Shown: positions 4,741 to 62,007 of the stretch, piece after piece | How the letters are laid out: each line of letters begins with the position of its first letter | Position numbering within the stretch: position 1 is the stretch's first letter | From: Takakia lepidozioides | Lineage: Eukaryota > Plantae > Bryophyta | Direction: 5' to 3' | Assembly: GCA_030704615.1 (NCBI GenBank) | Contig: CM060732.1 | Location: 32,054,001 to 32,118,000 of the forward strand | DNA length: 64,000 nt | The notes under the pieces: generated by a model | What the model was told of the DNA's origin: nothing | Seen by the model: only the letters and a program-made list of their open reading frames with translations | Database searches by the model: none | Position numbers and translations under genes: made by a program

Positions 4741-5019
4741 TCGTCGTTTTAACTTCATGGGGTTGTGCATGTCCCTTGTGGAGACGCTGGCAGAATTGAA
4801 ACTTAACACACAAGCTAGGTTCAAGCGGGTACGTGCCTGTGAGCAGTGCTGCGGGGCCCTTATGCCGAGTTATTCACGCTGGTGGTGTTCCTACTAGTAG
4901 GGAGTTATTCTAGCTAACTTCGAGCTATAATGCCTCAGTCCCGTCATGCTCATTATGTCTATCATAGTGCACCGTGGCCTTACGTTGTCACATGAAGACA
5001 AATCTAGTTGTGAACCCTG

Positions 5020-5266
5020 GACCTCGCAAAGTTCTCACACCCTACCAGGAGTGGAACAAAGAAAGTGCTCGAGAGATCCCCATTGAGAAATTGAAGGTTA
5101 TCGGTTCCCTGGACAACTGGGCGCAAGAGAATTTGCTACCCCTTTTGAAGCCTGTAGACAAGTGCTGGCAACCCCAGGACTTCCTTCCTGAAGCTTCATC
5201 GGAAAGTTTCTTTGATGAGGTAACGGAGCTCCAAGCCTGGGCCAGGGAACTGCCTGATGACTATGT
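5020..5266 (+). pseudogene. SAD: Stearoyl-ACP (acyl-ACP) desaturase N-terminal fragment
   Basis: IPIEKLKVIGSLDNWAQENLLPLLKPVDKCWQPQDFLPEASSESFFDEVTELQAWARELPDDY matches the conserved plant SAD/FAB2 N-terminal block and stops before the LVGDMITEEALPTY di-iron helix. Confidence 0.9.
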
Positions 5267-6024
5267 GATGTGGCGTTACAGAGAGCCCAGATACTGGGCC
5301 CACTTTGGTACCCTTGGGTAATTGATAAGGTGATAGGAGCTGACCTTCTCGCCCATCATGTCTTGTAGCAGGGAAGAAGGGCTGAAGGAACTCGTCATGC
5401 TCTAATTGGCCAATGCTCCAAGTGTGTGGAAATCAGACCAGTTGTAGATCACACAGATTACTCAACTGCACGATTTTGGGAGGAACAAATGACCTACAGA
5501 TACGGCACACAAAAGGTCACATCAACAGATCAAGGCTGAGAGTGGATTAAGTGTGAGTTTCGGAGATATATGAGCGATTCAGGAGGAGGAAACAAGAGCA
5601 GTCGGCCCTATACTGGTCACAGAGCAACGGACGGATTGGATGCGTGATCAATCATTGAAGTCAAGCATCAAAGTAATCAGTGGAAGAAAGGGTGGAGAGT
5701 GTAACACAGACCTCAAGACATGGTCTGGCAGTCGAGTTGAAGTGCAGGCTGCCCGTAATCTCCCTCCATGCGAGCTGGAACTTACGGGAAACGACCTGAG
5801 AGTCAGCAATGATAAGTATGTGGGACAGACACCTGAACAAATGCAGCTGAGGGATGACGAAGCGGCAATGCGGTCCATCATGGAGGAGAAGCCGATCGGA
5901 GTTCAACAAATCGAGCTGCTCCGTGGTAATGGCGAGGCGACCCCAAAACAACAGAGAACTACATGAACATGTTCGGAACCTGTAGATAACCTGGGAACAG
6001 TTTTTAATGGTGAGAACGTTTTGG

Positions 6025-6068
<44 letters not shown>

Positions 6069-6322
6069 TTTTTTATCTAATTCAAATGATTTAGAGCTTG
6101 GTTGGTCATATCTTTGTCAAATGAACTCCGTTTGACTCAGTTTTTGGGGGGATAGCTGCAGAAAGGGGAAATCTACCTACTAGACCTGGTTTTTGTTTTT
6201 GGGACTCTGCTAAAAATCTATGGGATTTTTAGAGTGTGAGTGTGCCATGAAAGATCCACAATCCTGTTTCTAGAACCTATTCTGGTCTACATGAGAGATA
6301 AATATGGGGATGTACTCCTTGT

Positions 6323-7071
6323 ATGGCTGGGGGAAATGAGGACGTGATTGAAGGGCAGGTCTCTTCTCTTAGCCTGTGCACCAAATGGGACAAGATTTAT
6401 GTTTCCCAAGGAACTCAGACTGATTTGAGTGGAGAACAGTTGGACGAGTTGATTGCATACTGGGAGTCAGGCATTAGCAGTGGACAACAAACTGTTGTAG
6501 TTGGCGTTGAGGGCCTCAATATCGCCTTGGACAGTCAGAACTCTGTTGGAGCCAGCAGTTCTGCAGCTGTAGGTGAAATACCAAAGTGGGTGAAAGCTAG
6601 GCTTGGAACACAGCCAAAGACAGCCCTGGGGACCAAGGTGTTCAGCCACAAGGCCATGGTGTATTGGAGTAGTTAGCAGGAGCTGCACAAGTTTGTGCAA
6701 TTAGACAGTGTTGCAGCCGGACACGCTCTGCACAAGGCAACCATGAGCGGGGGTTCATTAGCAATGACATGTTTGTTGTGCGTGAAGGAGATGCAGTCAT
6801 TCGCAATGAGGACACCCGCAACCGTCTCAAAGCTTTCGAGTTGAGAGACTATCAGACCCTACCTTTGTTTTCTTTAGTGTTCAGTGAGCGGGAGATAGCA
6901 GAGTGTTGCTTTGTCTCTACCTGGCAGAAAGAGGAGGAGGGTTGGTTAGAGCGAGCTACTGTAGCTTGGGACAAGGTTAGTGGCAGGTTTCTGGACATAG
7001 ATATACCTCCTACACCTTACCATCAAGCAGAGCGAGGCACGTTGAGAGAAGTCTGGAAGTTGATAGCATAG
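6323..7071 (+). pseudogene. Extra ORF of unknown function upstream of gag (two pieces joined by frameshift/stop)
   Basis: ORFs 6323-6676 and 6769-7071 are collinear, protein-like and on the same strand as gag. No recognised motif. Confidence 0.35.
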
Positions 7072-7589
7072 ATCAGGATTAGATCTTGCTTGGGCGGGCT
7101 TTTATTCTTCCCTTCCATCTCTGTACTATTTTCATTACCTTGTACTTGTAGTTGCCAAAGCCTCTCTTGGTGGAGGCCAGTCAGTCCGGGGTTTTGGGCT
7201 GGGACATTCTGCAGGATCAGCGTTGCTGCTGGATTTTGGTGTGGGGGTGTTGATGTTTTGATTTCTTGTGTTTGGATCCCCCCCAACACCTGCATGCTTG
7301 ACTGTGCGCCATGTTGTTTTGTGTGGGCGCTTGCTTTCATAGGGATTAGGCCGGATTTGATCACCGGTCAATCCTAGAGTATGCTGTCGGTGGTGAGGCT
7401 GGAGTGATGACCAGCAAGACCACCAATGTTTCTTCTATGGTGAGGCTGGGTTGATGACCAGCCAACCATAGGAGTTCTTGCGGTGGATGCAGGTGCAGGT
7501 GCCCTGAGCCATTGGGATATGACCCTTAAACTGCAACAGGTGCCCACCCATGTCACTATTAGATTAGTACTAGAGCCTTATAGTGTTAC

Positions 7590-8986
7590 GTGGAAGAGGT
7601 GCACATTGTGAGTGTCATTACGGAGTTACCCAAGGGTTTTGAGGGGAGTACGGCTACAGGCAGTAACAGTGACAGTGGGTTCACAAGACGAGGTATTCGG
7701 TTCAGACCACCTTCACCGCCACCCTCAATTATTGTAGAGTCAGACACAGACTCGGAGGCTTCATCAACAGGTGTGCACTTTCATTTGCCATTGTTGTGGG
7801 ACGACATGGAAGAGATATATGGAGCTACCAAGGGCCTCGTAGGTACTCTGGAGCTGTGGGCACAATTGAGTTGGATGACTTTATCCAGGAGTTCGACAGC
7901 TGGTGTGATTTGCAGCAGATGCGCAATCCACAGCTATTCACCCCATTCATGGCGTGGAAGGGACTGTTCCAGCATTTGGAAGGCCCGCCTATGGACGATT
8001 ACCACGAGTTCAGGCGAGGACATGAAGCAGAGATTGAGGAGTGGATGATGTATTGGTCACCTGACTACGTCTCCATTACTCGAGGCACGACGCAACCAGT
8101 AGCTGCATCAGTACCAATAGCTCCCACTGCCAGCACTAGTAGTGGAGCAAGTAGTGCTGGTACTTCTCCAGGTGGTACCAGTTCAAAAGGTGCTACTACT
8201 CCTCCTGCCACGACTACAACACATGTGCCTAGATTCAACCCGGTGGTGGAGTTCTTCCAGGAGTTGTGGAGGAACTACCAAGGTGTACGGACAGAGAAGC
8301 TGCGAAGTTTGCAAGACTTCCAGCGCAAACCCAGTGAGAGCCTGCGAGAGGCGTACACTCGTATGAGGCGCTTGATAAGTGTGACCCAAGGGGTTACTGA
8401 AGCTCAGGCAATCCAGTTTTGGTATGGAATTCTGGACAAGGAGCTCAAGAGAAGGGTGCGAGATGCAACCCTGTTACAAGCAGCCCAACCCACATTAGCA
8501 GATGTGTTTCTGCTGGCTGAGCGGATTGAGCTCAACATGGTGGAGGAGCGAGTTGTTACAATTGGATTTGGCAAGGACATGCCTGCACGGGGCACAGCTA
8601 TCAGCCCACAGACACAAGGGACTATCCAACAGCGTGGTCAGGGGGGCAAGGTTGCCCAATCCAAGTTCCATGGAGCTTACAGGGGACCTCAGATGCAGAG
8701 GCCCGTGGCATCTTTTGCAGGCCAACAGCAACCAGGGGTGATATGTTGGACATGTGGAGGACCCCATGTCAAGAGAGATTGCCCAGAGAGTGGCAAAAGG
8801 CCGGCACAAGCACAGCTTGCACAGTTGCAATGTGGGCATTGTGGCAAGTATGGGCATGGAGATGCCCAGTGTTATGACTTGCATCCTGAGTTGCGCCCAG
8901 GCCAGTTCCAAGGGAACAATGGTGGCCGGGGGCGAGGTGGACCAGCCCAAAGAGGACGAGGTGGTCGGGCACGAGGTGCAGGCTAA
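7590..8986 (+). CDS. gag: Gag with retrotransposon capsid region and two CCHC zinc knuckles (frameshift near 7800-7860)
   Basis: ELDDFIQEFDSWC; FQRKPSESLREAYTRMRRL (major homology-like region); CWTCGGPHVKRDC and CGHCGKYGHGDAQC; RGG-rich tail. Confidence 0.9.
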
Positions 8987-9739
8987 GGGCAAGCTCCACA
9001 TGGCCAAGGACGCGGAGGTCAGGGTGTTGACCAAGGCATGGCCAATCGGCTTCAGCAGCTAGAGCAGAGGCTCGCTGCCATAGCTATAGCTCAGGCGGTA
9101 CCGGCTCCCAGGCGGGATGGTCCACCTCCTGCTCCTGCTCCTGAGGGAGGAGATATGGGAGGCATGGGATTCATGTGCGGAGCAGCACTACCACTAGAGC
9201 AGGTGGAGTCTGCTGCAGCCGTGACTCGAGGAGTAGCACGAGTTCCTGAGCCACGAGGTGCAGAGGTGGAGTTGGATCCACAACGTGGGAAGGCAAGCCG
9301 TCAGGCAAGGCTGCCTCAGTCGTTCACCTTGGCGGAGACAGTGTCAACGCTATCCATGGCACCTAGTTCTCGCCCGACTGTTACCGAGGCGGACATTACT
9401 ATGCCATTGGGGAGAGCTACACGTGCAGCACTGACACCTGCCACCAAGGCTAGTGCAGCCGGTGTGTTGTTGGGGGCAGCCACCTCTGTGTGTCAAGCCC
9501 CACTGTTCTCGGCAACCATGATTGCGACGCCGGGAGTGAGACCAGCTGCAGTGTTCAGACTAGCGGCAACACTCTGTGAGAGTGGGGAGGTCACTTCATC
9601 TTCTGCGGAGTTAGTGGAAGGTGTAGTGGCAGAGGGATCCTTGGATTTGAGGGTCAAGACTGCCACGGCAGCGCCCTGGCAAGCTGCAGCTGCCAGATTG
9701 ACGGAGCTGCCAGCTAGGCCAACCTTTGAGCGCGCCACG

Positions 9740-10200
9740 GTGACACCTGGAGTTGTCTTGTTAGACAACCAGGGAGGCATTTTCACTTTGAGTGGACTGG
9801 TAGGCAAGAAGTACCAGCCACTGCGGGTCTTGTTGAACTCGGGAGCCCAGCCACTGATGTTGGGCAGAGAGCTGCTATTGCAGGTTTGGGCCTCATGGAG
9901 GCGGATATAGAGCCTTGTCCTTTCCAGATACAGACATCTCTGGGAGGATCAGAGCAGGCTCGGGGCATGACACGGCATCAGTTGGCTATTAGACTGCAGC
10001 CGGATCATCCTGTAGATGGCTCAGTGATGCGAGCCAAGGCCATTGTGACAGACACGGTCTCTTACGATGTCCTCGTTGGTGGGGCAGTGTTATACCCCAT
10101 GGGCTTCACCCTGGACTTCTGGAGGGAGGAGTCAGCATTCTACAGGCCTGGATGGCAGTCAGGGGATGGTCGCCGTACACAGCTCCCTGTGACATTCATT
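9740..10200 (+). pseudogene. Retropepsin-like aspartic protease of pol (catalytic D appears as N; frameshifted)
   Basis: RVLLNSGAQPLMLG (AAC at 9836 where DSGA is expected) and downstream YDVLVGGAVL (ILG-like motif). Confidence 0.8.
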
Positions 10201-10549
10201 GGGGTATTGCAGCTGCCCAGCGGGGCAAGATACCAACACTAGCTGCCTTCACAGCTGCAGTTAGTTGGCCTGGAGAGTTGCTTGGAAGGCAATGCCATGC
10301 AGAGGAGGATGTGCCACCTCCAGCAGAGCAGGATTCATGCATGGTATGGTGGAGTTGCCTGCCATGGTTGCTCACACTCCATTGTGGGGTACGAGCAAGG
10401 ATTTGCAGCAAGCTGCTGATAGACGGGTGCAACAAGCTTGGATAGAAGCTTTTGTACCGTCAGGAGAGGAGGAGAGTGCGGTGATTGCACCAGGGAAACC
10501 TCAGTTGTCGCCATTGGACACCACACCTCTTGTGTGGCAGCGGCCGGAT

Positions 10550-11500
10550 GAAGGCATATGCCTTCTGGACTTATTTGGCGGGATCAGCACTGGATTGGCT
10601 TGCAGTGCTGCAGGCAGGTGTACGAGTTCAACGTTACCTGTATGTGGAGAGGGATGAGACTGCACGACGCGTCTCACTGCGCCATGTTGCTCAGATGGTG
10701 CAGCAGTACCTTGAGTTGTTGCCGGTGTCTGCAGGTCGTGGATACAGCAGGCCTTGCCAGCAGACATTGCGTTGCTGGGGGGCAGGATTTGGAGCGGGTT
10801 GGCTCCATGATCTGGTAGTGGCAGGTTGGCCCTGCCAAGGGCATTCATCAGCCGGGCATGGCAATGGATTGCGAGACTCGAGGACGGGTCTGTTTTGGGA
10901 GATGGTGCGGATTTTGCGCCACTTGCAGCTTCATCAAGCTGTATCTCCGGCATACATCTTGGAGAATGTGCCACTGATGGGTGATTCTCGGGCCAGGGTG
11001 ATGGCCAGTGTGCATCAAGTCCGGTCGTGGCTTGGGTCAGCAGTGTTGCTGGATGCAGCTGCAGTGGGGTCACGGGCTCATCGTCCACGACTATGGTGGA
11101 CTAACTTGATGCCACCCGCACTGCTCAAGCGTGCATTTGATGGGGTGCAGCGGCCAACACACCTCACGTGGATGGCATTTTGGACACAGGAAGGCAGTCT
11201 CAACGTGTGAGACACAATGACCGTTCGCCTTTGGCAGTGGTCAACAGGGTGGGTCAACCATGAGCAGCATTACCTACACTGCTCAGCTTCCCAGGATCCA
11301 TGCTTTTCGGGATGGTGGACCTGGCCTCCTGTGGGATGCTCAGTTGCAACAGTTAGTGGAGCCTAATGCCGACGAGCGAGAGCGGCTATGGGGTTTTCCA
11401 CTGGGACCACGGCGGGTGCCTTCTCTTTCTGAGGCATCACGTCGCAGGTGTTGGGGCAAGCAATGGATCTCAATTGCTTGACTGGATTATCAGCTTGGCT
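10550..11500 (+). pseudogene. DNMT3-like C5-cytosine DNA methyltransferase domain inside pol
   Basis: Motif I LLDLFGGISTG (10561); II YLYVERD; IV DLVVAGWPCQGHS (PCQ 10830-10838); GLFWEMVRIL; VI YILENVP (ENV 10962-10970); VIII SRAHRPRLWWTNL; IX ERERLWGFP; X LGQAMDLN. Broken by several small frameshifts. Confidence 0.92.
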
Positions 11501-11899
11501 ATGGCTGAGCAACGTAGAGTGCGGAGCGCACTTCCCTGGACGGTCTCTCTGCCTACCGAGACGGTACAGGCAGCGAGTGGGGGCGAGCCGGTGAGGACCA
11601 CGGGGTTGTAGACATCCATGGCACATGTGGGAGGTGCTCGAGGTTCAGAGGGAGTTGGCAGCCAAAACAGCTGTGATGGATGAGGTTGGGGATTCTTCTC
11701 GGGATGAGGAGGTTCTCAATGATGAGATGATGGGGCAGGATGAGGCCTTGTCATTGACTGAGCAGGAAGGAAGTACTGCTCAAGAGGTTGCCAGCATAGC
11801 AACCACGGGACGCGTCCTCTACCTCTAAGCCACTGGACTTAAGGTTGCAGTACGGAGGACAATTGGGAGCCTGACATTGGACCCATTGTCACCGGAGGA

Positions 11900-13330
11900 G
11901 AGAGACGACGTATACGGCGGTTCCTGAGGGCTTACAGGAATTGCTTTGCCTTCAGTTTGAAGGACTTGGGAGCACTGAAGGGTCAAGAGATCCGTATTGA
12001 GTTGGCCACTGACACGCCAATCTTTCGGAGACCCTATAGATACAGTGACATGGAGAGGTCTTTGATTCAGATGAGGACTCAAGATCTCTGGGAGGCAGGT
12101 TTGGTGGAGCTCTCTGGTGGAGAGTATGCTTCAGCCACAGTGATGCCAGCTAAGAAGGATGTCTATGGCAATTGGACGGAGAGACGTATGTGCGGTGATT
12201 ACCGGCCTGTAAATCGTCAGACCAAGTCCGATAGGTATGCCATGCCAACACCAGAGGAGATCTTTGATGCCATTGGGCATTCCAAGGTCTTTAGCACGTT
12301 GGATTTACGATCCGGATATCACTAGTTGCCGATCAAGGAGGCGGATAAGCAAAAGACGGCATTCTGGGGGATCAATGAGCACGGGAAGGATTGCCTATAC
12401 CAGTGGCGGTTCTTACCATTTGGGCTTAAAAACGCTCCCGCTGAGTTTCAAAGAGTCATGGACAGGATTCTAGCAGGGGTGGAGTTTGCTCGGTGCTACA
12501 TAGATGACATCATCATCTTTAGTGCTACGGTGGAGGAGCATGAGAGACACCTTCAGGGGGTATTTGAGCGCTTAAGGACGCACGGATTGAAGTTACATCC
12601 GGGCAAGTGCAAGTTTTTCCACAACCAGATTGAGTATCTGGGTCACATGATATATCCTGGAGGATTGGGGGTACAGCAGACTAAAGTAGAGTCCATTGTA
12701 CAGGTTCCACGCCCCACGGATATGAGCCGAGTTCGAGCTTTCATGGGGTTAGCAAACTATTACAGACGGTTGTTAAGGGATTTAGTGCCATTGCAAAGGC
12801 TCTAACCAAGCTGACCAAGGTGGACCAGGAGTGGCAGTGGGGAGTGGGAAGATGAGCAAGAACAAGCTTTTCAAGAGCTCAAGGCGAGGTTGACCTCGGC
12901 GCCCATCTTGAGACGACCTATCAGGGGGCGTTCTTTTCAGCTGCATACAGATTGGAGTATGCTGGGGCTTGGAGCGGTGCTCACACAGGTGGATGATGAG
13001 GGAAGAGAGTTCGTAGTGGCTTATGCTAGCCGCTCGAACAATGCTGCAGAGTCTAAGTATAGCTCATATGAGGGAGATGCTTAGCTGCAGTGTGGGCCGT
13101 GGCACACTTCAGGTGCTATCTATACGGCAATCTCTTCACCCTTGTCACGGATCACCAACCACTCAAGTGGTTGATGGAGTCAGACAAGCTTACGGGGAAG
13201 CTTGCACGGTGGGCACTCATCCTTCAAGAGTATGACTTTCAGGTGGTGGCATCGACCGGGTTGGTGAATCGCAATGCAGATGGGTTGAGTCGCAATCCAT
13301 GCACGAGCCAGCAGGATGACACTGGAGCTC
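11900..13330 (+). pseudogene. pol: Reverse transcriptase and RNase H of pol
   Basis: RMCGDYRPVN, FSTLDLRSGYH* (TAG 12323-12325), LPFGLKNAP, YIDD (12497-12508), YLGH. RNase H motifs LHTDWS, YASRS, TDHQPL, NADGLSR. Confidence 0.95.
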
Positions 13331-13559
13331 GGTGGCATGGTGAGACGGACGAGGAGATGGTGCCCGGATGGCATGCATCTGCATTTCTGTGTATCTTGGC
13401 AGCAGAAGGCCAGGTTGGACCTGCAACAGGGATGACTGTAGATCAAGTGTCTGAGGACCCTGAGGCAGCAATGAGCAAGGTGGCGCCAAAGATATACATG
13501 AGGATTCAGTTGTGTTGGACTACCTCCGCACTGGAGACACTGCAGCCACTGTGACTGCC

Positions 13560-14650
13560 AAGGAGAGGGATCGGATCCTACAACGAGCCAAGAGGTTCAA
13601 GTGGGAGGGGACACACCTGCTCCGAGTGGGGAGGATGGTCGAGTGAGGATTGTGCCTCACCCAACACAGCGGGCACGGTTAGTGCGGCATGCCCATGAGG
13701 AGTTGGGGCATTTTGGGGTGCGACGCACTCATAGTCTACTGCAGGGGCAGTATTGGTGGCGTGGTATGCACACAGAGGTACAACAATTTGTGGCTAGGTG
13801 CATGGTGTGTGACAGGGTGCGTGCTTCATTCAACGCCCCTACTCCACAATTGCACCCTCTTCCGATCATGGGATTGGGCTATAGGTGGAGTCTTGACTTC
13901 GCAGGGCCATTGCCACTGACCATGCGCCACAACAAGTACGTGTTGGTGATGGTGGAGCACTTCTCCAAGTGGATTGAATTGGTTCCATTGCCTGATAAGG
14001 CTAGTGAGGGAGCTGCGTATGCATTCTTGGATTGTGTGCTTAGCCGATTCGGTGCTCCAGCTGAGGTACTCACGGACCAAGGGAGAGAGTTCTTGGGGGA
14101 GTTTCAGGCTTTGTGTGACAAGGCCTTGATAGCAGAAGGGACACCTAGGAGATTGGGACCTTCAGTTACCCTGGTTAGCCATGGGCTACAGGTTCAGCAA
14201 GCAAGCATCACTTGCCTCATTCTCACCATACTTTCTTCTCTTTGGCCGAGAGCCGGATTTGCCTACATCCATTCGCAGAGAAGCTGCTACAGTTCTTAAC
14301 CTTGACGATCCGGACGTGTGGGCACGTGCATGTGAGCAGCATGCAGAGTTGTTCAAGAGAGTCATGCCCATGGCTTTCGAGAACCTTGCCATTGCACAAC
14401 ACCGTGATACGTTGAGGTATGCTACCATACGTGGTGGGGGCTATCGTCCTGGGGTTCGGAGATTCAACCCTGGTGACTATGTCTATCTGCAGCAGACTGC
14501 CCCTACGACCCTGGATGTGACTGCAGGACGTGTTATTTTGAGGGTTCGAGAGGTCTTGCCCTCATGCGTCTTGGTCTTGGAGGGTCGGGATGGCATAACT
14601 TGGAAGGACCATGTGCGTAATTGTGCGCCATGTCACCTTCCGAATGTCGA
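13560..14650 (+). pseudogene. Integrase (HHCC zinc domain and core; segment with the catalytic E is deleted near 14130)
   Basis: HEELGHFG...CMVC, WSLDFAGPLP, VLTDQGREF, SPYFLLFGREP. The usual HP..DG.AER segment is missing between DKALI and DWDLQLPW. Confidence 0.9.
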
Positions 14651-14696
14651 TGGCAGGATTGACCCAAACCTGGCAGTGGTATCTGCAGGTTTGAGG

Positions 14697-14840
14697 TGTA
14701 TGTTGTGTGGGTCTGCTAAAGGGGCAGCCACCATGCTGGTGTGCGATCGATGCTCTAGAGGTTGGCATATGGGATGCTTGACTCCACCTCTTGAGATGGT
14801 TCCAGATGGGGATTGGTTATGTCCACATTGCATTGGATAG
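14697..14840 (+). CDS. C4HC3 PHD finger at the pol C-terminus
   Basis: CMLC...MLVCDRCSRGWHMGCLTPPLEMVPDGDWLCPHC, in frame with the integrase C-terminal part (ORF 14181-14840). Confidence 0.95.
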   Translation, partial: CMLCGSAKGAATMLVCDRCSRGWHMGCLTPPLEMVPDGDWLCPHCIG

Positions 14841-15098
14841 TGGGAGTGGATACAACCATGGAAGGCTAACAAGCAACGCAAGGCCCAGCTACTAGGAGAC
14901 CTTGAACACACGAGATCCTGGCTCAAGTTCACAGATTGCAAGACGGCGGCTAACGATGGGGCTACTCTTGTACCCGGCCCCTTGGTCTATAGAGTTTGAG
15001 TACAATAGGGACAGTGATAGAGGACTTAGTACGGCTGTGGCTATTACATCTTTGCTATCTGGAGGTAGAGGGACCTATCCACCAGCTAGGGGGGCGAT

Positions 15099-15621
15099 TG
15101 TGGCAGACTACTTTATTGGGCATATATGTGTGGTGTGGTTTGGACAGCGATGTAGTTGTGTAGCGACATGTATGCGCACGACAGCTGTCAAGTTAAATAA
15201 GCACAGTGTGAAAACAGCTAGAATAAAACTAGTTATTTGTATTTAACACTTGGATTTAGGTCAAGTGTTAAATCAGGTGTCAAGTTTAGTTTGACACCTG
15301 GTCCGTCTTATCTTCACGAGAGCGGCAGTCGCGCGGCTCATCTCTCTCGAGTTGAGCCTGCGCGACCGAGCTCCTGCATGCGTTTAGATCTGAGTGTACT
15401 CATGATGGGAGTGTAGGTTGTTGTGGGGTGGAGTCCCTATAGCTTGGGGTGCCCCTGGCTCGACTACTATTTCTAAGAGTGATGGTTTGGTTTTCATGCT
15501 TTGCATCGTGTGTGTCCTTAGCTTTTTTAGCACTATTGTGGCAGACTACTTTATTGGGCATATATGTGTGGTGTGGTTTGGACAACGATGTAGTTGTGTA
15601 GCGACATGTATGCGCACGACA
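15099..15621 (+). repeat. Putative 3' LTR (523 bp) beginning and ending with the same 85-bp sequence
   Basis: TGTGGCAGACTAC...GCGCACGACA at 15099-15183 and 15537-15621, with one mismatch (CAGCG/CAACG); directly follows the PPT. Confidence 0.8.
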
Positions 15622-16811
15622 TGTCCGTTCATGGCACTCGCAGTCCAACAATCGACGGCCGTGGTAGAAGACGTGGTGTTGGGGCCGGAATTTTTGTGGA
15701 TGACATAGCACAGGAGGTCGATACTGATTCTGATGACTGTGACACTTGATATGAAGTTTTCTTTTGCTTTTATTCGGGGCCAATTTGGAAATGGGATGGT
15801 TGTGTGTCCCTGTTGTCCTGTTTGCAATGTGTGCGTGGGATGCAAATTCATGGGAACAGACTATCGTTGGAGATGGGGGTTGCATGGACTGCCCAGATTG
15901 TTCCTTCAATCTATTTAGTGTTTTGCGGAGCTCACAGGCTTGTTAGCATTGCGAAAACAAACACAGATATTTGGTTCGGGTAGAGCATTCTCGCATCATT
16001 TGCTCGTTGGTCTCCAAACCATTCCTGCTAGAAGAATGCTTGGTAAATCCATCACATTAAAGTCCACGTGATCAAAGACCGTTCAGGCATTCTCAAATCT
16101 GGTGAGTATCCATGATGCTCCCGCACATACTTGGCATGTTCGCAAGGGTGGTGAGTAAGAAAAGATTTTGCAGGGATCCGCTTTGGATGATGTGAGTGTG
16201 CACCTGCTCACGACGTAGCCACATTCCAATGCAGGGGCTTGGTATGTTTGACTTAGTTTCGGGCCACGTCAGGCAAAATCACAGGGCCCACGTAGGGCAA
16301 AAAGCAAAACCGAAACAAGCCCCTGAGTTGCCCATCACCACGGCGCCTACCCAACCGGCCGGCCAACTGCCTCACTTCCCTGCAGCATGACAAGGTCTCT
16401 CTATCTCGCCCTGTTTGAAGCTCTCTCTCACTCTCTCGTCATTACCATCCAAAACCAAAATTGAGGGGGATTTGAACCCCCTGATCTGCCCGTATGTGCA
16501 GACAGTTCCCCCCCCCCCCAAGCAGCCAGAGAACCCCCTCCAACAAGGCAACAAACCCCCATTGCAGCAACCTCCTGGAGACCCCCAAAAATCTGCAACC
16601 ATAAATGGATGCAATGGATAGTAAGGATGGATACAATGGATGTAACACAACCAGTCTGCATTCCGTGCAAATGGCTGATCAACCCGCGGTAATAGGTGAC
16701 ACCCGTGGTAATAGGCCCTGTATGCATGCTGACGTGGCGTGAGCCTGTGCTGGGCTCACGGTTTCCTGGGCTCATAGGCTCACGCCTCCGGGCTCACGGA
16801 ATAGCACCCCC
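15622..16811. mobile_element. Remnant right end of a DNA transposon (Mutator-like) with GCTCACG subterminal repeats
   Basis: Ends GCTCACGGAATAGCACCCCC (16792-16811), an inverted match to 62008-62028. GGTAATAGGCCCT (16707-16719) occurs inverted at 61216-61228. Confidence 0.5.
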
Positions 16812-18690
16812 ACTTATAAATGACCTACATAATATTGGGGGGTACAAGTACATTGTAAAAACCCTACCTGTCAACGTTTTTCATCCTGCATCATCCAATG
16901 CACCGACATCATGATGATCACCTGACATCATCCATGGACCATCCATCCATCCATCATCCATCAACCGACATCATCAATCATCCACCGACATCATCCACTG
17001 CACAAACATCATCTTGCGCACATTTAACATCCAAAGCACCTTTATCATCGTGTGCCATTTGTTTTTTATACTGCATGTTTTTTTTGGCGAAGAGACCTGG
17101 CCAACTGTAAAGATGCCTTCAGTTAGTGGTGGGTCCTCCATCATCGTGTGTCATTTGTTGTTTATACTGCATTATTTTCTGAGCACGGACCCGAACAGCA
17201 GAGATGTCTTCAATTAGTGGCAGAGATGCCATGAATCAGCGTTGGGTCCTTGATCTGGTGGTCTTTTCTGAAGCCGTTGGGGAGAAACTACTTATATCAG
17301 CCGACCATGTGCACTGCGCTTCTACAAAGGCATCGAGAAAGGGAGTTTCACGGATTGGGGCATCCCGAGTGGTACTGGTAGAAGTTCCCTGGAATGGAGC
17401 AGTTTGTCGGCAGGCAACCAGCGGAGTTTTGTGAATCGGATAGTACAAAAAGGTTGTACTTTGCAAGACTGGTGGCTGCGCACACTACTATCACTTTGAT
17501 GAATCGTGCATTTTTGGTCTCTTTCTGTATATATAGGTTTTAGAGCAAAATGCATGATTCATCAACAGAAAAGCAGTGAGTTTTGAAACTGTTGTTTGAC
17601 CACACTACTACCGGTGAGTGCTATACCAGTATGTTCCGGGATGTGAAGTAGAAATATAGGGATAGGTTCTTCAAACCTAGCCATCTTCCAGATTCTTGGA
17701 CTAATAACTATTGTTTTTTCCTCGAATTCAAGGTAGGTTCTTCACCTATCATGAAGCTCCAGATCAACCCTTCAACCTGCACAACACCTTAACAATAAAC
17801 CGTAATATCTTTTGTATATAGGCTCATAATTTCTTTAAATTCCAGTTCCCTGTCCACGTTGAACTGGGCGCCATTATGTAAAATTAAATTTGTTAAGTCT
17901 TGTATGTATTTATGAATGATGCTATATAATATTTTATATACATAAGAAAGGAATTCATAAATATTTTTAATTATTTTCTTGACAAAGAATTATTAACCTC
18001 AATAATTCATTGGAGTGGATTAGGTGACAGACATCAAGTGTTTCCTACGGATGGTTCAAAATTCAAATGCATTTTCACTACCACCCGCGACGTTGCAGCG
18101 TGGTTTTCAGTTCATATTTGTATGATGCTAAGTCCGTAGTTGATTTTGTCGCCAGGGTGTGTAGAAGAATTCCACAAATTAATATGAGCCTCGGGCCGTC
18201 CAGAAAGTTGGAGGACCAAGCTGTGTGTCAATCAGAATGTCACATGCAAAGGATGTTGCACCGGTCCCACGAGGAGTTGAAATCATGAAGAAGAATTTAA
18301 CAGGGGGCATACTCATAATCTTCTTGAATTCATGGGATACAAATAAATGATCTATATAATAATAATAGCAAGTGCGTGTATGAGTGAATATTAAATTATA
18401 AAATCTTATCTGCGATTCTGCATTTTAAAATAAATTTGATATTTTTTATAAGTGGTGTGAACAACTAAGTTGATTTGTCGAGGGACGTGGTCATACAGTA
18501 TTCCTTCGTGTACCAAATGCCTGACAAATCAAAGATGAAAGCATCTAAGCATAAATTTGAAGGATCTAAGAATCTATTAGAGAATATTCGATGAACAAGT
18601 GGGATGAAGACATGGGCATTTGGTATTCCGACGCATACTGTTTGCCCACAAAATCAACCCTGGACAAATCATCTACATCCACTAGTGGTT

Positions 18691-18777: not shown

Positions 18778-19688
18778 AGTAAAATTGTCGAGCATTTGGT
18801 ATTCCATAGTTTCCCTCCTGTGTGCCTAATGGCTTATCTGATAGGAGTGTTTTGCGCTCCAAGTGGTTTAGAGATGTGGAGGTGAAAGCGGCATCCCCCC
18901 CCCTGGTAATGCTCCTAGGACGGAGCCCCTTGCAAGCGGTGGCTGTGGCGCCTCCCAAGCGTTCAGGATGCCAATGACATTAAGTAATAACTCGAAACAC
19001 TCTTGTGATTTTTTTTGGGGGTCGCTTTGTTGTGTGCCGCATAGGGTCCAGGCGTTAAATTGTCTTCAGCAGAAACTATCTAATCTGGCGAAGCAAACAA
19101 TATAGTCAGACAAGGGCTATAATTAACAGCCTCGTCCTGTCGAAACGTTTGGTACATTTGGCACTTAGGTCAAGATGGGAGCATGGAAGAGCGCTGGCAG
19201 GATTTCTGTAAAGATTCTTCACAATGGTGGGATTACAGCTACGACAAGGTGCTTTTTCTTCATGTAGGATGTGAAGGAGTCTGTGGTGGGGAGGTTTGAC
19301 TGACTCTTGTATGATAATATTTTGTAGACTGGATTACCCCCCTAACTGTTAAGTTGAGTACAATTAGAATCTTGGGTTGTTCTGCGTGCTTTTGAGGTGT
19401 CACTGGCAAAGGGATTGTAGTCAATTATCCAAAAACCAAATCAGAGAGGAGAAGAATCTTTGAAAGGAATGTTTTTCAAACCCCAGTCAATGGTTGGGCA
19501 ATTGAGGCAGAAAGGTGAATGTCTGTTATGTTACAGCAGAAGTAGAAGCAGAGAGCAAGATGCATTGAAAAGTTTCCTTGCAAATTGTTATCCTCCCTCT
19601 CTCCCAACACATTTTAAAGTATTGTAAGCAGTTCAGCATAGACCCCAGTGTTTGTAGTCAGCAGGGATGGGGTGTTTTCTAGATAAGT

Positions 19689-21750
19689 TTGAGGTTGTCA
19701 TTGTCAGCGGCTATTAGCAATAAGAAGGATCTGTGCGTCATTGGTGTCGCGGCAGGGATAGCTGAAGGAGGCAGGGATGGAGTCTTGGTCCAGATCCATC
19801 CAAGCTGTTCAAATTTGAAGCACAAGAGTACCAATGAACTACTGTGGCTTGATGGCTACAGGAAAACTGCATGGGTGGATGGTCAATTGGAAGCAGCAGC
19901 AGCAGTAGAGATAATAAATCAAGGCACCTCCACCATGATGACCGCACCCAAAAGAGGACCAAGAGAGTGGGTTCACAAGATCTCTTCTGGCACCTGTGGC
20001 GCACATGTGAGGATGCTTTGTGAGGCAGGACAACTGAAAGAGGCTCTGAGCATTTTGAATCATGGAGGTATTTCAACAGATTTCGCTACCTATGTCTGCC
20101 TCTTGCGTAAGTGCACCAAGATGAAAGACCTAGCAGCAGGAAAACAGGTGCATGCCCACATTATCCAATGTGGATTCAAGCCCAATGTGTTTCTGCACAA
20201 CACCCTTGTCAACATGTATGTCAAATGTGGGAGCATTGTGGATGCACACCGAGTGTTTGCCAAAATGCCTGAACGAGGTGTGATTACATGGAACATAATG
20301 ATAGCAGGATATACCAAGCATGGGTATGGTAGGAATGCCTTGGAGACCTATGAGCAAATGATACAGGAGGGGGTGAAGCCTGACCAGGTCACATTCGTCT
20401 GCATTTGCAAGGCGTGTGCAAGCCTGGCAGCTCTTGAAAAGGGCAAAGAGGTGCATGCTGACATCATGAAATCTGGAATTGTACCACATATGGGTGTGAA
20501 CAATTCCCTCGTGGATATGTATTTCAAATGTGGGAGCATCAAAGATGCGAAGGGAGTGTTTGACAACATGGCTGAACGTGATGTGGTATCATGGAGTGTG
20601 ATGATTGCAGGATATGCCCAGCATGGGTGCGGGATAGAGGCTTTGGAGACCTATGAGCAAATGATGCAGGAAGGGGTGAAGCCTGACCAGATCACGTTTG
20701 TTTGCATTTGCAATGCGTGCGCAAGCCTGGCAGCCCTGGAAAAGGGCGAAAAGGTCCATGCTGACATCGTGAAAGCTGGAATTGTACCAAATATGATTCT
20801 GAGTACTACCCTCATGGACATGTATGCTAAATGTGGGAGCATTGAGGATGCAAAGGGAGTGTTCGACAATATGGCTGAAAGGAATGTGGTTGCATGGAGT
20901 GCGATGATCTCAGGATACGCACAGCATGGATATGAGATGGAGGCTTTGGAGACCTTTGAGCAAATGATGCAGGAAGGGGTGAAGCCGGACCAGGTCACTT
21001 TCATTTGCGTTTGCAATGCGTGTGCAAGCCTGGCAGCCCTGGAAAAGGGCAAAGAGGTCCATACTGACATCATGAAAGCCGGAGTTGTACCAAGTATGAC
21101 TCTGAACAATACCCTCATGGACATGTATGTCAAATGCGGGAGCGTCGAGGAAGCAAAGGGAGTGTTTGACAATATGGCTGCACGAAATGTGGTGTCATGG
21201 AGTGTGATGATCGCAGGATTTGCCAAGCATGGGTGTCGTAGGGAAGCCCTGCAATTGTTTGAAGGAATGCAAAAGGAAGGCTTGAAGCCGAACAATATCA
21301 CCTTTCTGTCTGTCCTCCAAGCATGTAGCCATGGGGGCCTCATTGATGAAGGCAGACACTACTTCGATTCCCTGTGTCAAGATTATGGCCTCACTCCTGC
21401 AGTGGAGCACTTTGGCTGCGTGGTGGACCTTCTTGGCCGTTCAGGGCAATTGGATGAGGCTGAGGAATTCATTAACAAAATGCCAGTCCATCCAGATGCT
21501 GTGGTGTGGAAAGCCTTGCTTGGTGCCTGCAGAATTCATGGCAATGTGGAGGCGGCTGAACGTGTGGCACAATCTATTCTCCAATGGGATCAACAGGAGC
21601 CACATCTTATGTGTTACTAGCAAATATCTATGCTGCAGCTGGCAGATGGGACGATACTGACAGGTTAGAAAAATGATGGGATTCAGGTGTCAGAATGCTT
21701 ACGTCCTCACTGCATTGAGGTTGGCAACTGCAGGCAGTTTTTGATTAACA
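19689..21750 (+). CDS. PLS-class pentatricopeptide repeat protein with E domain (organellar RNA editing factor type); E/E+ region frameshifted, no DYW seen; true start uncertain
   Basis: Intronless ORF of 643 aa with repeated triplets (LVNMYVKCGSI / VVSWSVMIAGYAQHG / PDQVTFVCICNACASL), then HFGCVVDLLGRSG and VWKALLGACRIHGN. TSYVLLANIYAAAGRWD and CIEVGN continue in shifted frames after 21600. Confidence 0.92.
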
Positions 21751-24378: not shown

Positions 24379-25239
24379 TCAAATCAAATGGTACTTTATA
24401 ACGTCCATGGACAGTTCAATGAGCTTATGGGACAAAATGGAAAAAAAAAGAGAGAGGAAACAAAACCAGAGCCAAAAAACAGCCCAAAAGCTACCGAGAC
24501 TAGAAAGGAAAGGGGAGGAACTTCATAACGTCCTTGGGGGCCAGAAAAAAAGACGGAAATTTTCATAACGTACCAAGGGCCATGAGGGCCAATGGGACAC
24601 AGTAGAACAAGAAGTAACCATTTTAGAAACAGCTAAACAATGCCTGAAGACAGTGGCTCCTTGGAGGTAAGCTACTATATACATTTCAGGCCAAGTCTCT
24701 GCAAAAAGCCTGGGAATCTTCAAAGACTACAATAACTGCTCATGCCTTTTAAGACTTGAACAGTTCAGGTCTAATCACTCATCTGGCTCTGAAAGCGATA
24801 TGGTGATGAAGTAGGTCCCACCTGAGTTGACCCATGCCCATTGAGCGCTGCTTTTGCAAAGCTGAATGTGCAGATGCATATGTTTTATCACTGCATTCAA
24901 TCACAATCATATGATGGTTTCCGCTGCTCACATGTAAGAGAGTCTCGGAAGTGGATAAATCGATGTCTTAAATCCATAGCTTCATGGTACAATGATCACA
25001 TGAGAACCTGGAGATGAGTTGAGAATGTGAAGCGGGAATCCACCATTACAGGGATGCCCTGGCATGGATGGGGAGAATAAGTGGTACCTAATGCCATTTG
25101 AATCTGGCACAGTTCCAAATTTCTTATGCTCCTAGAGCAACTGCTCATCCAAGTTCTACATAACAAACACGACTTCAGTACCCGAGAGAAGATAGACAGA
25201 TTTCAAGAAGGAAAACATGACCTTGCCAGCCTTTAAAGA

Positions 25240-26130
25240 ATGTACTCATAAGACGTTTGCCGTAGCCTTGTGGCCATTGACCCCGCGCTCAGTTTGAACG
25301 GAACACAAAGGGACAGAACCTACCTCTGTCAGGGGCACGTCGATAGTAAGACTTACCTTGGTAAAGAACATTGATCCGGGTTTTCCAGATATCCTCTGGA
25401 AATCCCTTCACACAAGCATCATTCGACTGTGTGTGGTTTGCCCAGTAACTAGGCCCCAGAAGGGCCTGGGCTTTTGGCTCAGCCTCGAGACTTTCAAAGT
25501 TGGTAAACATAGGAACAGGCACAATTCCCTTGATAGATTTGAGGAGAGCGTCTCTCTGGTGAGAGTACCCTGGACAGTGTATCAGGAATTGAATATTGTC
25601 TTCGGGTTGCCCACACAACGGGCAATTGCACTCTCCCTTTCCTCTCTGCTTCTGTTTACTGTTCAAAGGTAGGCTTCCTGCCCTGAGTTTAAATTTCAGT
25701 CTAGTGCCGAGAGTGGGTAGACCCTTGAGGTCATCCATGATATCCTCCCCCATGTCACAGACTGGAAACAGGTTCAGGGAAGTTTTCTGCCTAACTTCAA
25801 TTTCATCGGACAATTTTTTGGTAACAGACATGGCTTTGGACACTACAGTCTCTAAGTCAGATTTATCCAGCAAGATCAAGACTTGCGGGTCCAGATTCAG
25901 ATCCTTGAGAATCTCTTCTACTCTCTTCTGCCAGGACTTAGCCTGTTTGACAGGGCGGTCCTGTTTGCAAGATTTAAGCGACTGGGTGCATACCGGGACT
26001 TCCCGGGAGGTCACCCATCCCAGTACTATTGCCAGCCTTTGAAGAAATGAACAGAGAGACAGAGAAATGTAGTCATTGACCTCGACTTGCTGTATAGCAT
26101 ATAGACCCTTACCAGGTTCAGACACGATCG
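25240..26130 (-). mobile_element. LINE ORF2 C-terminus (CCHC) and 3' tail
   Basis: FKLRAGSLPL...CPLCGQPEDNIQFLIHCPGY (zf-RVT-like). Ends GGCCACAAGGCTACGGCAAACGTCTTATGAGTACA, a tail shared with short copies elsewhere. Confidence 0.85.
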
Positions 26131-27378
26131 AAAAGTTGGGGGCAGGGGTGCAGAGGAAAGATATATCTTTATATCTTATATCTTTATGTAAGTTTTGTAT
26201 GGTGAAGAGTCACCCTCACCTTCCGGATGACAGGGTGGCTGCCACGTTCACTGAGGCCGTCTATGACTTCCTCATTTGCTAGAACAGTTCCGAGAGCTGG
26301 ACACCAGTTTACTGCAACCTCTGCCTGCTCCAGCCCTCATTTCCAAGACCATTTCAGTAAATGCAGTCACTGCCAGTGAATGCACTATTAGCCTTGTTAG
26401 CAAACCTCTGTTAGCAAACCTCAGTTCAGGGTTTAGGTTCTATCACGTATTAAAAAAATATATCAATTGATGATGACCAAAAACACTAGTCACCAGCTAC
26501 GTAGGAAGACAGCAGTGGAACAAACACAGAAACCTGGCTAAGTGTTACCTACAACAGAGCCTGACTTACTACAAGTGGACACAATGGATTTTGTTGCAGC
26601 TCTTTAAGAGAGGCTTGGCCCGCTCCCAAAAAAATGTAGAGATTTGTGCGGCCCCGTCTTTTCTCCAAATATCTACCCATACCTATGAGCTTACATCTGG
26701 AAATCTAGATGCTTGCATTAGTGCCTTGCAGGCCTTTTTTGGCCAACCTGGAAAAAGTGACCCCCTGGCCGGAAAACGGGCGTAATTTGCTCATGTTTCA
26801 CTTCTTAAAGAACTGACCCCGCTGCGTCGTTATCGGTGCAGGTGCTGCATCTCGAAGATTCAAATTGCCAAAGGTTGAGAAGACCAGGCAGAAGAGTTTT
26901 TCATTAGAGTGGTGCGATAGAGACCATGGGCGAGCAGATGCGGGGCGCGGAGAGCTTGCTGAGGGTGTTGCGACCTCCATATCTGGGGCGCCCGGCTATT
27001 TCAAGACCTTTCCTTGTTTCTCTTCCGGTCATGGCCTCCCCGTCTGCTTCTTGCAGTACCTGTTGGAGTGCTGCCGCTGGAATCGGAGGGTCCCATACAA
27101 GAGTCTGGAGGGTTTTTGATCCTAGGGGTGGAGTCTCATTCTTTCCTTGGAGCGTTTGGCATTGGCCAGAGCAGGGTCGGTAGCTGGCAGAGCTGGTAAG
27201 AGAGAGAAATTTGGCAGCAGCAAGTGTTAGATATGGTGTGTGGGAGAGATCAACGATTGGTATGGGAAGCACTAGGAGCGATGTTGGTATGGAGAGGAGG
27301 AACTTCCATTGCCAGGCGGCCATCGATGCTCTACTATGGAGCGAATTTTCTTCAAATCGGACACACATGGCCCGTTCC

Positions 27379-29125
27379 ATGTCGGTCTACTACTGATCTC
27401 AAGATTGACTTCCGTACACTCAGTGTCACCTTTGAGTTGGAACTAGCTTCCATTACTTTGTGTGGCGATTTATTTCCTATAACAGACGGCCTATCCGATG
27501 CTTCATGGCCGGAGATCAAGCGCGACTTGTGTGTTGCAGGAACGATAGAAGATCCTGTGATTATCAGTGGTCGTGCAATATGTGCAGTTCCTATAGGTAC
27601 GTTTTCCTTCTTCCAAGCTTAGAAGACTTCTAGCTGCTTTATTGGATAGGTTCTCCCTCTTGTACTTCCTAGAGTTGATTGTCCCTTAGGTTATGTAGAT
27701 TCTTGGCACATAGGTTACTTATGCAGTAATTCCATGGTAATAGTTTGGATCAATGCAGAGGGAGGTCCACCTTTGAAAAGGGCACGAATTGAAGATCCAA
27801 GCTTTCAGTCCTTCGTCCAATCGGCAGCAAAACATTACAGGCAGTGGGAACAAGCTGAGAAGGCTGTTGAAAAGGTTGGTGAGAAGGCTGGAGTGAGAAG
27901 GAGGAGCACAAAAATTTCTTGGCGGTGAGTGGCGATCCGTTTGGTAATTTTTCAAAAGGATTTCTTATTTGGATTCGAAAATGCTATAAAGATTTGAAGG
28001 AGATCATGGCGAAGGCGAAGGAGAGTCGAAGGTTCACTTTATTGGGTACATCGGGCATCGGGAAGTCTTTGTTTACTATTTTTTTGGATATGTTATTGGG
28101 CGACACTGAGAAAGTCGTTTGGAAAGATAAATGCTATCTCCTGGACTTCAGTGAAGAGGGTTCATTGTCAGAAAAGCAAAGGTTGCAAAGGCCTATGGTC
28201 CGTTCTTGGAGGATGGCAGTGAGCTTCGGGTAGTGTATGATGATCTTGTGGCTTGGCTTATTATAGATGGGCGACAGAGCGGTAATTTGAACCATAGGTG
28301 CCATATTTTGCTAGCATGTTCAGCTAGAAAAGAGAACTACAAGGAATTCTCCAAGAATCGGATGGTCTCAATCCAGTATATTCCTATTTGGGCAGAGGAG
28401 GAGATCATCGAATTTCTGACGACTTTGAAGTCCCTAAGGCCAACTATTCACACATGAATGTGCCTGTCAAAGATAAGGCTATTGGCTATTTTCGGCAGCT
28501 AGGAGGCGTGCCGAGGTATGTTCTATGTGCTGAGAAGACTGAAGAACTTTTGCATGAGTTAGGAGAAGCCATCGGTTTGCTTGGGAAGGACACCTGTTTG
28601 AATTTTTTTAGTGGGAGGTTTGAAGAAGAGCACATGAGTGATTGCCTCGTTCATGTGAAGTGTAGGGATGGGAGATATGACACATTCATCTATGACTTCG
28701 CATCCTTGTATGTGCGGGATGAGTTTGGAAATCGCTTTACCAAACTCAGTAAGGTTGAGGTAGTGCGATTTCTGCAGGCTAATGCAGATACCTCCTCGGC
28801 TGGGAATACTTATGGATACATCTTTGAGTTGCTTGCACACGAGGTTATGCAGCGAGGCGGAGAATTCCAGATGAAAAGAGTTGGGTTTCAGGGTAAACCT
28901 GTTGAGGCTGAAGAGGTGGGCAATCTAAAGCTGTCGGATGAAATGAAGGTTGTTCGATTTACGAAGGTAGAGGAGTTACGAGTGTTAAATCCAGAGACGT
29001 ACTACAAGCCTCGCAATGCAAACTTTGAGAGTGTTGACGCACTAGTATCTCCTGATACTTTGCTCCAGTTTTTTAGCTCCCAGAGAGGAAAGCACAGGTA
29101 CGGAATGTATGGTGGAAAAGAGTGA
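27379..29125 (+). pseudogene. Crinkler/RHS-type protein: P-loop NTPase + restriction-endonuclease-like domain, frameshifted
   Basis: IWIRKCYKDL, LLGTSGIGKSLF (Walker A), WLIIDG (Walker B-like), YIPIWAEEEI, LGGVPRYVL, DFASLYV, GYIFELLAH, YYKPRNANFESVDAL..LLQF. Confidence 0.8.
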
Positions 29126-32018: not shown

Positions 32019-32267
32019 ATGTTGGAGAGCACCCCACGCTAAGCTGCCCTAAGCCAATATCCTTTTCTTTCCACAGTGACGCACTGCATGCTATATAAAA
32101 TGTGTGGAAACGAGGGTACATGACAAATTAACAATTTGGCAGGCATTCACCCTGGTTACGGTTTATAAACCTGGGGAAGTAGTGCAAAAATCCAGTTGTG
32201 GGAGAGATGGTGGAGTTCTCCTGTCATGTGAACGCAGCAGCCCCACAGCCCTGACTTGTCTCCGGCT

Positions 32268-33553: not shown

Positions 33554-33585
<32 letters not shown>

Positions 33586-61983: not shown

Positions 61984-62007
61984 TCGGGATCGTGCAAGAC
62001 AAAACCC

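Follow-up and report, generated by a model that had tools for sequence, protein, structure and literature searches.

The methyltransferase-bearing element in the Takakia window

The window analysed here is a 64,000-nucleotide stretch of the Takakia lepidozioides genome (contig CM060732.1 of assembly GCA_030704615.1, positions 32,054,001 to 32,118,000 of the forward strand; coordinates below count from its first letter). From ~6080 to 15621 it holds a dead copy of a high-copy Gypsy retrotransposon that carries a DNMT3-like C5 cytosine methyltransferase (MTase) domain and is a land-plant relative of KnitGypsy-Dnmt3 (de Mendoza et al. 2018, PMC5890265; this and the other papers are cited from their accessible text). 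Pfam scanning of 17 open reading frames (ORFs) of the window, tblastn and motif searches give the domain order gag, protease, MTase, reverse transcriptase (RT), RNase H, integrase and PHD finger, all on the + strand like the other element features below, and the full element is wider than the interval 7590..14840 of the initial annotation.

The 5′ leader (6080..7805) belongs to the high-copy region; its approximate start is marked by a rise in summed contig depth from ~900–2200 to >230,000 at 6004–6504 (run X2), and no conserved ORF was found in it by comparison with 80 related loci. The gag region (7806..8983, probable start ATG at 7806) has a weak Retrotrans_gag match (E = 0.007), two Cys/His knuckles at 8744 and 8831, and 60–75% identity to the N-terminus of a Marchantia protein (P0006, gene model Mp4g09160, with a naturally intact MTase domain; P numbers denote related proteins and L numbers related loci). 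The broken aspartic protease (9754..10200) had no Pfam match in the window ORFs and was found by tblastn with P0006 and by its catalytic motif, LLNSGA(Q) at 9830 as against LDSGA or LDTGA in relatives. The frameshifted MTase domain follows at 10550..11500 (DNA_methylase PF00145, E = 9.6e-13 in ORF 10485–11207), then a TAG CAA CCA stop at 11797..11805, RT with YIDD at 12497 and one in-frame stop (11852..12800; RVT_1, 8.5e-25), RNase H (12815..13350; RT_RNaseH/RT_RNaseH_2, 8.2e-24), a DDE integrase (13637..14690; Integrase_H2C2, 6.9e-17, and rve, 1.2e-12) with its HHCC motif at 13694, its core at 13886–14130, a deletion near 14132 and a C-terminal extension, and a C-terminal PHD finger with its stop codon (14697..14840, finger 14697–14831; PF00628, 4.4e-11). 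The protease-RT-RNase H-integrase order of Ty3/Gypsy elements is thus present together with a Ty3-like RT; the best PDB match of the close relative P0193 is Ty3 Gag-Pol (E = 9.7e-92).

This copy is dead. Its best alignments contain eight frame changes across gag, protease and MTase and four from RT to the PHD finger, gag is broken by an early frame change, in-frame stops are present, the catalytic Asp of the protease is replaced by Asn, and the integrase is short by ~95 bases relative to a related contig.

The methyltransferase and the PHD finger

The initial annotation placed C5-MTase motifs I, II, IV, VI, VIII, IX and X in 10550–11500, and both the PF00145 match and the motif positions bear this out: LDLFGG at 10565, YVERD at 10641, GWPCQG at 10824, ILENV at 10956, AHRPRLWW at 11076, EPNADERER at 11359 and GQAMDL at 11454 stand in unpermuted order (10565–11470). 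The motif numbers follow the usual nomenclature, which alignment to DNMT3A backs. A profile built from 22 relatives finds DNMT3A first (E = 3.3e-25), followed by DNMT3B/C (1e-22), DRM (5.7e-16), DNMT2 (8e-9) and HhaI (4e-8), and in a Foldseek search with the modelled MTase of the relative P0002 (predicted local distance difference test score 83.7) every listed row is DNMT3A or DNMT3B (best E = 6.5e-20). The window fragment alone matches both DNMT3A and HhaI at ~1e-4 and does not separate them. The proposed DNMT3-like character is upheld: by its unpermuted motifs, the profile and the predicted fold of its relative, the MTase is of the DNMT3 type.

Among 150 representatives at 50% identity the catalytic Cys is kept in 144/146, the Glu in 150/150 and the two motif VIII Arg residues in 147/148 and 146/147, and the window MTase keeps all of them. 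The Pro that precedes the Cys in motif IV is Glu in 78 of 146 representatives. The domain is under purifying selection, with its protein conserved while synonymous sites are saturated, so the neutral evolution that would have spoken against the initial annotation is not seen. Between the window and the loci the median proportion of synonymous differences (pS) is 0.77, and that of nonsynonymous differences (pN) is 0.25 in the MTase (80 pairs), 0.29 in the protease and 0.17 in RT; these are simple Nei–Gojobori (NG86) counts over pairs that are not independent. The median MTase ratio of nonsynonymous to synonymous rates (dN/dS) is 0.17 for the 66 pairs with pS of 0.60–0.74. Close copies give higher values (MTase 0.48–0.82, RT 0.35–0.73), and such a rise among close copies in all domains is as expected after neutral decay.

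The best solved relatives of the PHD finger in the PDB are the fingers of CHD4, PHF12, KDM5 (PHD1), ATXR5 and DPF3, so that it is of the CHD4/KDM5-PHD1 type, and Gly takes the place of the cage Trp of H3K4me3 readers in 176 of 188 PHD relatives. PHD fingers of this type bind unmethylated H3K4, as does the ADD domain of DNMT3. By this analogy we lean slightly towards a PHD finger that would direct the integrase to nucleosomes whose H3K4 is unmethylated, which is also what animal DNMT3 recognises.

Family, breadth and history

A metagenome scan with the MTase as query gave 256 confirmed stretches, the best 80 of which were used as loci; some are one insertion assembled twice (41 distinct among 50 at one site). 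Where the loci are long enough to test, 57 of 64 have a protease upstream of the MTase and 51 of 57 have RT downstream of it; RT or RNase H lies directly upstream of the MTase in none of the 80, and 16 loci have all six domains from protease to PHD finger. The main locus group is nearly identical in sequence to a Sphagnum gene model. The MTase fragment matches 68 longer proteins, with identity reaching 68% across almost the whole query (named matches are from Marchantia, Calypogeia, Riccia, Sphagnum and Klebsormidium), and the integrase-PHD end matches 138 (Marchantia, Calypogeia, Klebsormidium, Pleodorina, Volvox, Tetrabaena and Astrephomene). Look-up of 30 proteins added Closterium, Coleochaete, Scenedesmus, Tetradesmus and Cymbomonas, and three Klebsormidium proteins (P0048, P0205 and P0310) are direct matches. 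The MTase is therefore, as the initial annotation supposed, a trait of the family and not a one-off insertion, since the same architecture recurs in dozens of loci and in bryophyte proteins. At E values up to 1e-30 the MTase profile matches 505 clusters (50% identity), so the lineage is large. One lineage member, P0488, is labelled uncultured cyanobacterium in NCBI/UniRef and is probably a binning contaminant.

Two architectures occur, with the MTase either before RT or between RNase H and integrase. The second is that of the chlorophyte relatives (Pleodorina, Volvox reticuliferus, Tetradesmus, Tetrabaena and Scenedesmus; P0223, P0226, P0260, P0271, P0327 and others) and of 61 of the 83 elements with both MTase and RT that were placed in trees (73 length-filtered proteins, nine chosen loci and the window); in Cymbomonas P0418 the MTase lies directly 5′ of the integrase. 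These trees come from a quick search, are unrooted and are built without host DNMT3 or DRM enzymes. Of 80 splits, the MTase and RT trees have 32 in common; with shuffled labels the figure is 0.18. A single branch of the MTase tree separates all 22 MTase-first elements from the rest (Shimodaira–Hasegawa-like approximate likelihood ratio test [SH-aLRT] support 95), and in the RT tree they are 22 of the 24 members of one side. In both trees the window groups with Marchantia and moss-type copies, apart from Klebsormidium (SH-aLRT 99–100). Judged from these trees, the MTase has been inherited with its RT as the homologue of that of KnitGypsy-Dnmt3 and is no new acquisition; one old acquisition and a later move within the polyprotein would be compatible with the unrooted topology.

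The same metagenome loci include a second moss family at ~40% identity (L058, L063, L064, L067, L068, L070–L074 and L076–L080), which likewise has split ends (see below) and reads GWEC in motif IV where this could be read (L074).

A conserved stop between methyltransferase and RT

The initial annotation placed the MTase between protease and RT, collinear inside pol, and suggested looking for an uninterrupted protease-MTase-RT-RNase H-integrase-PHD frame. The order stands; the single open frame does not, since a conserved stop ends ORF1 after the MTase. In all 42 loci that have an RT start anchor, an in-frame stop lies 14–17 codons before RT, in the contexts TAG CAA CCC (25), TAA CAA CCC (14) and variants (3), while at any of 1,075 other codons in five domains at most 0.32 of the loci have a stop, even at decay-prone CAG and CGA sites. 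Diverged families have it at the same site (TAG CAA CCA in L024, TAG TAG CCA in L052), and gene models end after motif X, by 98 residues in Marchantia (P0006, P0007 and P0010) and by 100 in Calypogeia (P0003). Gag, protease and MTase thus constitute ORF1. Past the stop the frame of unbroken loci is in phase with ORF1, so in the window branch MTase and RT share a phase with a stop between them; in the second moss family they lie in one open frame. The TAG CAA CCA at 11797 in the window sits at the matching distance, its frame being unreadable directly in this broken copy.

Similar readthrough signals are found in other plant long terminal repeat (LTR) elements, the Sireviruses. We consider it probable, from sequence comparison, that RT, RNase H, integrase and the PHD finger are made by readthrough of UAG CAA CC, which would place the MTase at Gag-like and not Pol-like abundance. 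The CAR YYA that follows UAG is the readthrough signal of tobacco mosaic virus (TMV), and wild-type viral contexts of this kind gave 9–32% readthrough when assayed with a reporter in plants (PMC2754532). The window and L024 agree with this TMV-type (type I) leaky context at each of the six bases that follow UAG, and the main moss family deviates with CAA CCC.

Some observations detract from the readthrough interpretation. TAG CAR YYA occurs seven times on the + strand of the window, so only the position of the 11797 site is informative; no such stop is present in L058, L064, L073 and L074 of the second family or in the Klebsormidium and Closterium proteins; and in the main moss family CAA CCC, with five of the six consensus bases, is followed by ATG, which would permit reinitiation. 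The same element and enzyme could then make RT, RNase H, integrase and PHD finger by reinitiation downstream or from a spliced or subgenomic RNA, a fairly unlikely alternative. That ATG lies three codons past the stop, and several predicted RT proteins begin with Met 40–50 residues before RT; the codon is, however, GTG in L024 and CGG in the window, while both keep CAA CC, and the in-phase downstream frame of the unbroken loci also speaks for readthrough.

Split repeats and integration

Two identical terminal LTRs are absent; related loci instead have split direct repeats in the layout A-internal-polypurine tract-B-GC-A-B. In the window the polypurine tract (15088..15096; the same tract is present in nine related loci) lies just 5′ of the 87-nt repeat B1 (15097..15183), which ends in CACGACA. 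The palindromic junction CGACA-GC-TGTCA (15177..15192) leads into repeat A2 (15186..15534, ~350 nt, assigned by position from related loci), which starts with TGTCA, and repeat B2 (15535..15621), 99% identical to B1, forms the 3′ end of the element. Eight related loci have repeat A at the same place, with a length of 282–363 nt, and in six loci a further copy lies 5′ of gag; no match to 15186–15534 was found elsewhere in the window, where the 5′ end of the element is missing, and the termini were read from related loci. At their outer ends complete relatives have TGTCA and CACGACA, which correspond to the halves of the internal palindrome. Four of the five loci with both ends (L031, L049, L064 and L073, not L070) have a 4-bp target-site duplication, reading TCTC, AAGG, GGTC and CCAA; two of these were located by hand after being missed by the pattern.

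The DDE integrase and the target duplications indicate that an integrase inserts an element with DIRS-like ends. DIRS-type split-repeat elements are without target-site duplications (PMC8969392). Membership of the DIRS order is ruled out by the DDE integrase, the duplications and the lack of a tyrosine recombinase, for which no Pfam match was found in the 17 window ORFs. A TGG-type primer-binding site after the 5′ repeat was found by a simple pattern, applied without host tRNA comparison, in none of six loci, and there are no tRNA genes in the window. Since B begins at the edge of the polypurine tract in both copies, ordinary reverse transcription would leave B-GC-A at each end. Tentatively, the sequences suggest that the genomic form could arise if these B-GC-A ends were joined and the product was opened at the internal junction; alternatively, templates could be switched as in DIRS elements, starting from an RNA with B2 in it. 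Heterogeneity at the A2/B2 joint, which would favour end joining in each cycle, occurs in just one of nine cases (L031), so the circular-permutation model is not established. The split ends may be the reason why LTR-finding pipelines missed the family.

Copy number, host DNA and neighbouring features

In public runs from the window's organism, summed contig depth over 6004–15522 exceeds that over the flank 17026–18027 by a factor of some hundreds up to roughly a thousand; summed contig depth is not a copy number and is only a rough sign of a high-copy family. Two studies agree in giving the MTase about the same depth as gag and RT. In another organism, a contig of 5,009 bases covers 10245–15103, from the MTase to the 3′ end, with 246 differing letters (~95% identity). 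The even depth, the bryophyte grouping in the trees and the land-plant relatives of a neighbouring PPR gene all agree with the land-plant host that the initial annotation took from the flanking genes, and give no sign of algal DNA joined in.

This PLS-type PPR gene (19683–21620, +) has 303-nt repeats and an E-like end, and its named relatives are from land plants: identity is highest to Diphasiastrum (52–57%) and Ginkgo (53–55%), both over the C-terminal part, and is 47% to Sphagnum over the whole. Together with the liverwort and moss origin of the element's nearest named relatives, this places the host among the non-flowering land plants. A degenerate inverted fragment of a similar PPR gene lies at 15921–16206. 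On the 5′ side of the element a stearoyl-ACP desaturase fragment (4968–5321, +; PF03405, E = 1.9e-17), possibly a retrocopy, lies just 5′ of a poly(A) run at 6029–6063. Elsewhere the window has a 1.45-kb direct repeat (30578–32028 and 42480–43919, 98% identity), which may represent a pair of LTRs or have arisen by recent duplication, smaller repeats nested at 25235–42474, and remnants of Mutator-like transposases with a SWIM finger at 54957–57877 (+) and 61483–62028 (−), PF04434 matching weakly at 57149–57874. An ORF at 37189–37737 (+) that terminates in RGLVLDLSYRYVH has no Pfam match; we take it to resemble plant HNH-endonuclease family proteins.

Proposed life cycle of the element

Overall, we favour the reading that this is a leaky-stop Gypsy element whose DNMT3-like MTase is abundant in the particle and methylates the element's own new cDNA, and consider it reasonably likely. 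ORF1 would make Gag, protease and MTase, and readthrough of the stop would add RT, RNase H, integrase and PHD finger. The protease would free the MTase, which would be abundant in the particle, and on balance we think that the released enzyme would carry out C5 methylation of the cDNA there or at integration, so that the copy would arrive looking like methylated host DNA. The PHD finger would guide the integrase to nucleosomes with unmethylated H3K4, and the integrase would take its ends from the internal CGACA-GC-TGTCA junction, where the 2-nt spacer is what 3′ processing would remove.

Several results count against this picture. The closest enzyme that has been assayed, that of KnitGypsy-Dnmt3, gave no methylation in yeast, a result its authors call inconclusive (PMC5890265). 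No CpG or CHG depletion marks the element (CG observed/expected 0.49, against 0.55 in the rest of the window and 0.37 in the PPR gene), so there is no footprint of self-methylation beyond its surroundings. Loci chosen with an MTase query cannot reveal copies without one, and P0266, P0270 and P0278 are among the few long integrase-found relatives that have no MTase in the same protein. Beside the splits that the two trees share, 11 of the 41 strongly supported MTase splits conflict with RT splits.

The MTase might act mainly after integration, or in trans on element repeats or host chromatin, and so damp transposition, an option raised in the discussion of PMC5890265. Expression at the level of Gag would leave much free enzyme and the PHD finger is of a chromatin-reading class; yet throughout green plants the domain has stayed part of the polyprotein, in one of two positions, as would suit an enzyme delivered with the particle, and the very high copy number of the family in this host (a rough figure) also speaks against self-restraint, which we regard as unlikely. 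Still less probable is a non-catalytic or RNA-directed module that binds nucleic acid or methylates RNA in the particle. The inactivity of the Klebsormidium enzyme in yeast and the frequent Glu in place of the motif IV Pro would suit such a module, but the catalytic Cys, Glu and both Arg residues are almost invariant, the window included, and profile and fold are nearest to DNMT3 and far from DNMT2 (E = 3e-25 against 8e-9). That a host DNMT3 retrocopy landed in one Gypsy element, or that the contig is a chimera with algal DNA, is highly improbable: the window copy is heavily broken and no long read spanning the element and the PPR gene was seen, but the architecture recurs in dozens of loci and named bryophyte proteins, both trees place the window with Marchantia and moss copies and apart from Klebsormidium, no DUF3444 is seen, and depth is even.

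A wider proposal, which we put forward as doubtful, is that the particle-borne MTase of the favoured reading belongs to a green-plant-wide Gypsy clade with DNMT3 and PHD domains whose de novo MTase would have been active since before the chlorophyte/streptophyte split, would have moved once within the polyprotein and reached capsid-level expression in land plants through the leaky stop, and whose DDE integration would proceed by opening a circularly permuted cDNA at the palindromic junction. If true, bryophyte genomes, that of Marchantia among them, would have in this clade a mobile source of de novo DNA methylation.

DNA methylation is the main weapon of plants against retrotransposons, and methylases encoded by transposons have been stated to be absent from land plants (Morozov 2019, PMC6338049). 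The family described here is abundant in bryophytes, and in Marchantia its members go under the label of hypothetical proteins; with the knockout lines and methylomes available for that model plant, the role of a retrotransposon DNMT, open since 2018, can be tested directly. A leaky stop would entail an unusual stoichiometry, with the enzyme at Gag level, and the combination of split ends and target duplications suggests that integration takes a route intermediate between those of LTR and DIRS elements.

Comparison with known systems

Neither the conserved stop nor a land-plant DNMT3-Gypsy element was found described in the full-text literature (subscription papers and repeat databases lie outside it), in line with the initial annotation, which knew of no land-plant case; term searches of PMC10952607, PMC11982613, PMC9033089, PMC6317226, PMC9915684, PMC8226279, PMC6453930 and 10.1101/2021.11.30.470311 gave none either. 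Marchantia has no mention in the main text and three supplementary files of PMC5890265, nor has PHD or Marchantia in the main text of PMC6317226 on plant Gypsy lineages. For streptophyte retrotransposon DNMT3, both Sarre (2025, PMC12344493) and a preprint of 2026 (10.64898/2026.05.21.726589) refer back to the 2018 work.

KnitGypsy-Dnmt3, from a group of Klebsormidium elements that are Dnmt3-related in the tree of PMC5890265, shares with the present family the Gypsy domains, an intronless and unpermuted DNMT3-like domain between protease and RT, DIRS-like repeats and purifying selection. The family described here differs in its land-plant host, its conserved stop between MTase and RT and its very high copy number, and the accessible text of PMC5890265 does not mention 4-bp duplications or a palindromic junction for KnitGypsy-Dnmt3. 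The 2018 paper attributed that element to acquisition within the K. nitens lineage; the relatives found here span bryophytes, Closterium and chlorophytes.

The dinoflagellate element SymbioDIRS-Dnmt3 of Symbiodinium, whose enzyme methylates CG in yeast (PMC5890265), also has a DNMT3-type domain in a retrotransposon polyprotein and A-coding-B-A-B repeats, but with a DIRS RT and a tyrosine recombinase in place of a Ty3-like RT, a DDE integrase and target duplications. The common A1-internal-B1-A2-B2 layout of DIRS, PAT and Ngaro-type elements (PMC8969392) is similar; these lack target-site duplications, which four of five complete relatives of the present family have together with TG...CA ends.

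The catalytic domains of host plant DNMT3 and human DNMT3A are, like the one here and unlike DRM, of the unpermuted DNMT3 type. Host plant DNMT3 (PpDNMT3a/b) carries DUF3444 (PMC6453930), which was not seen in the element, and host sequences are not in our trees; the element therefore has little of the bearing on the history of plant DNMT3 that the initial annotation gave it. The green-algal EpiLTRs and DAM-LTRs (bioRxiv 10.64898/2026.05.21.726589) similarly combine methyltransferase and chromatin-reader domains in LTR elements, but have a DNMT that is sister to DNMT4, with DAM and a chromodomain, and their authors set them apart from streptophyte Gypsy-DNMT3. Set beside these systems, three things are new here: a conserved stop, split ends accompanied by target duplications, and the architecture of the chlorophyte relatives. 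The family also extends a published kind of algal element to land plants.

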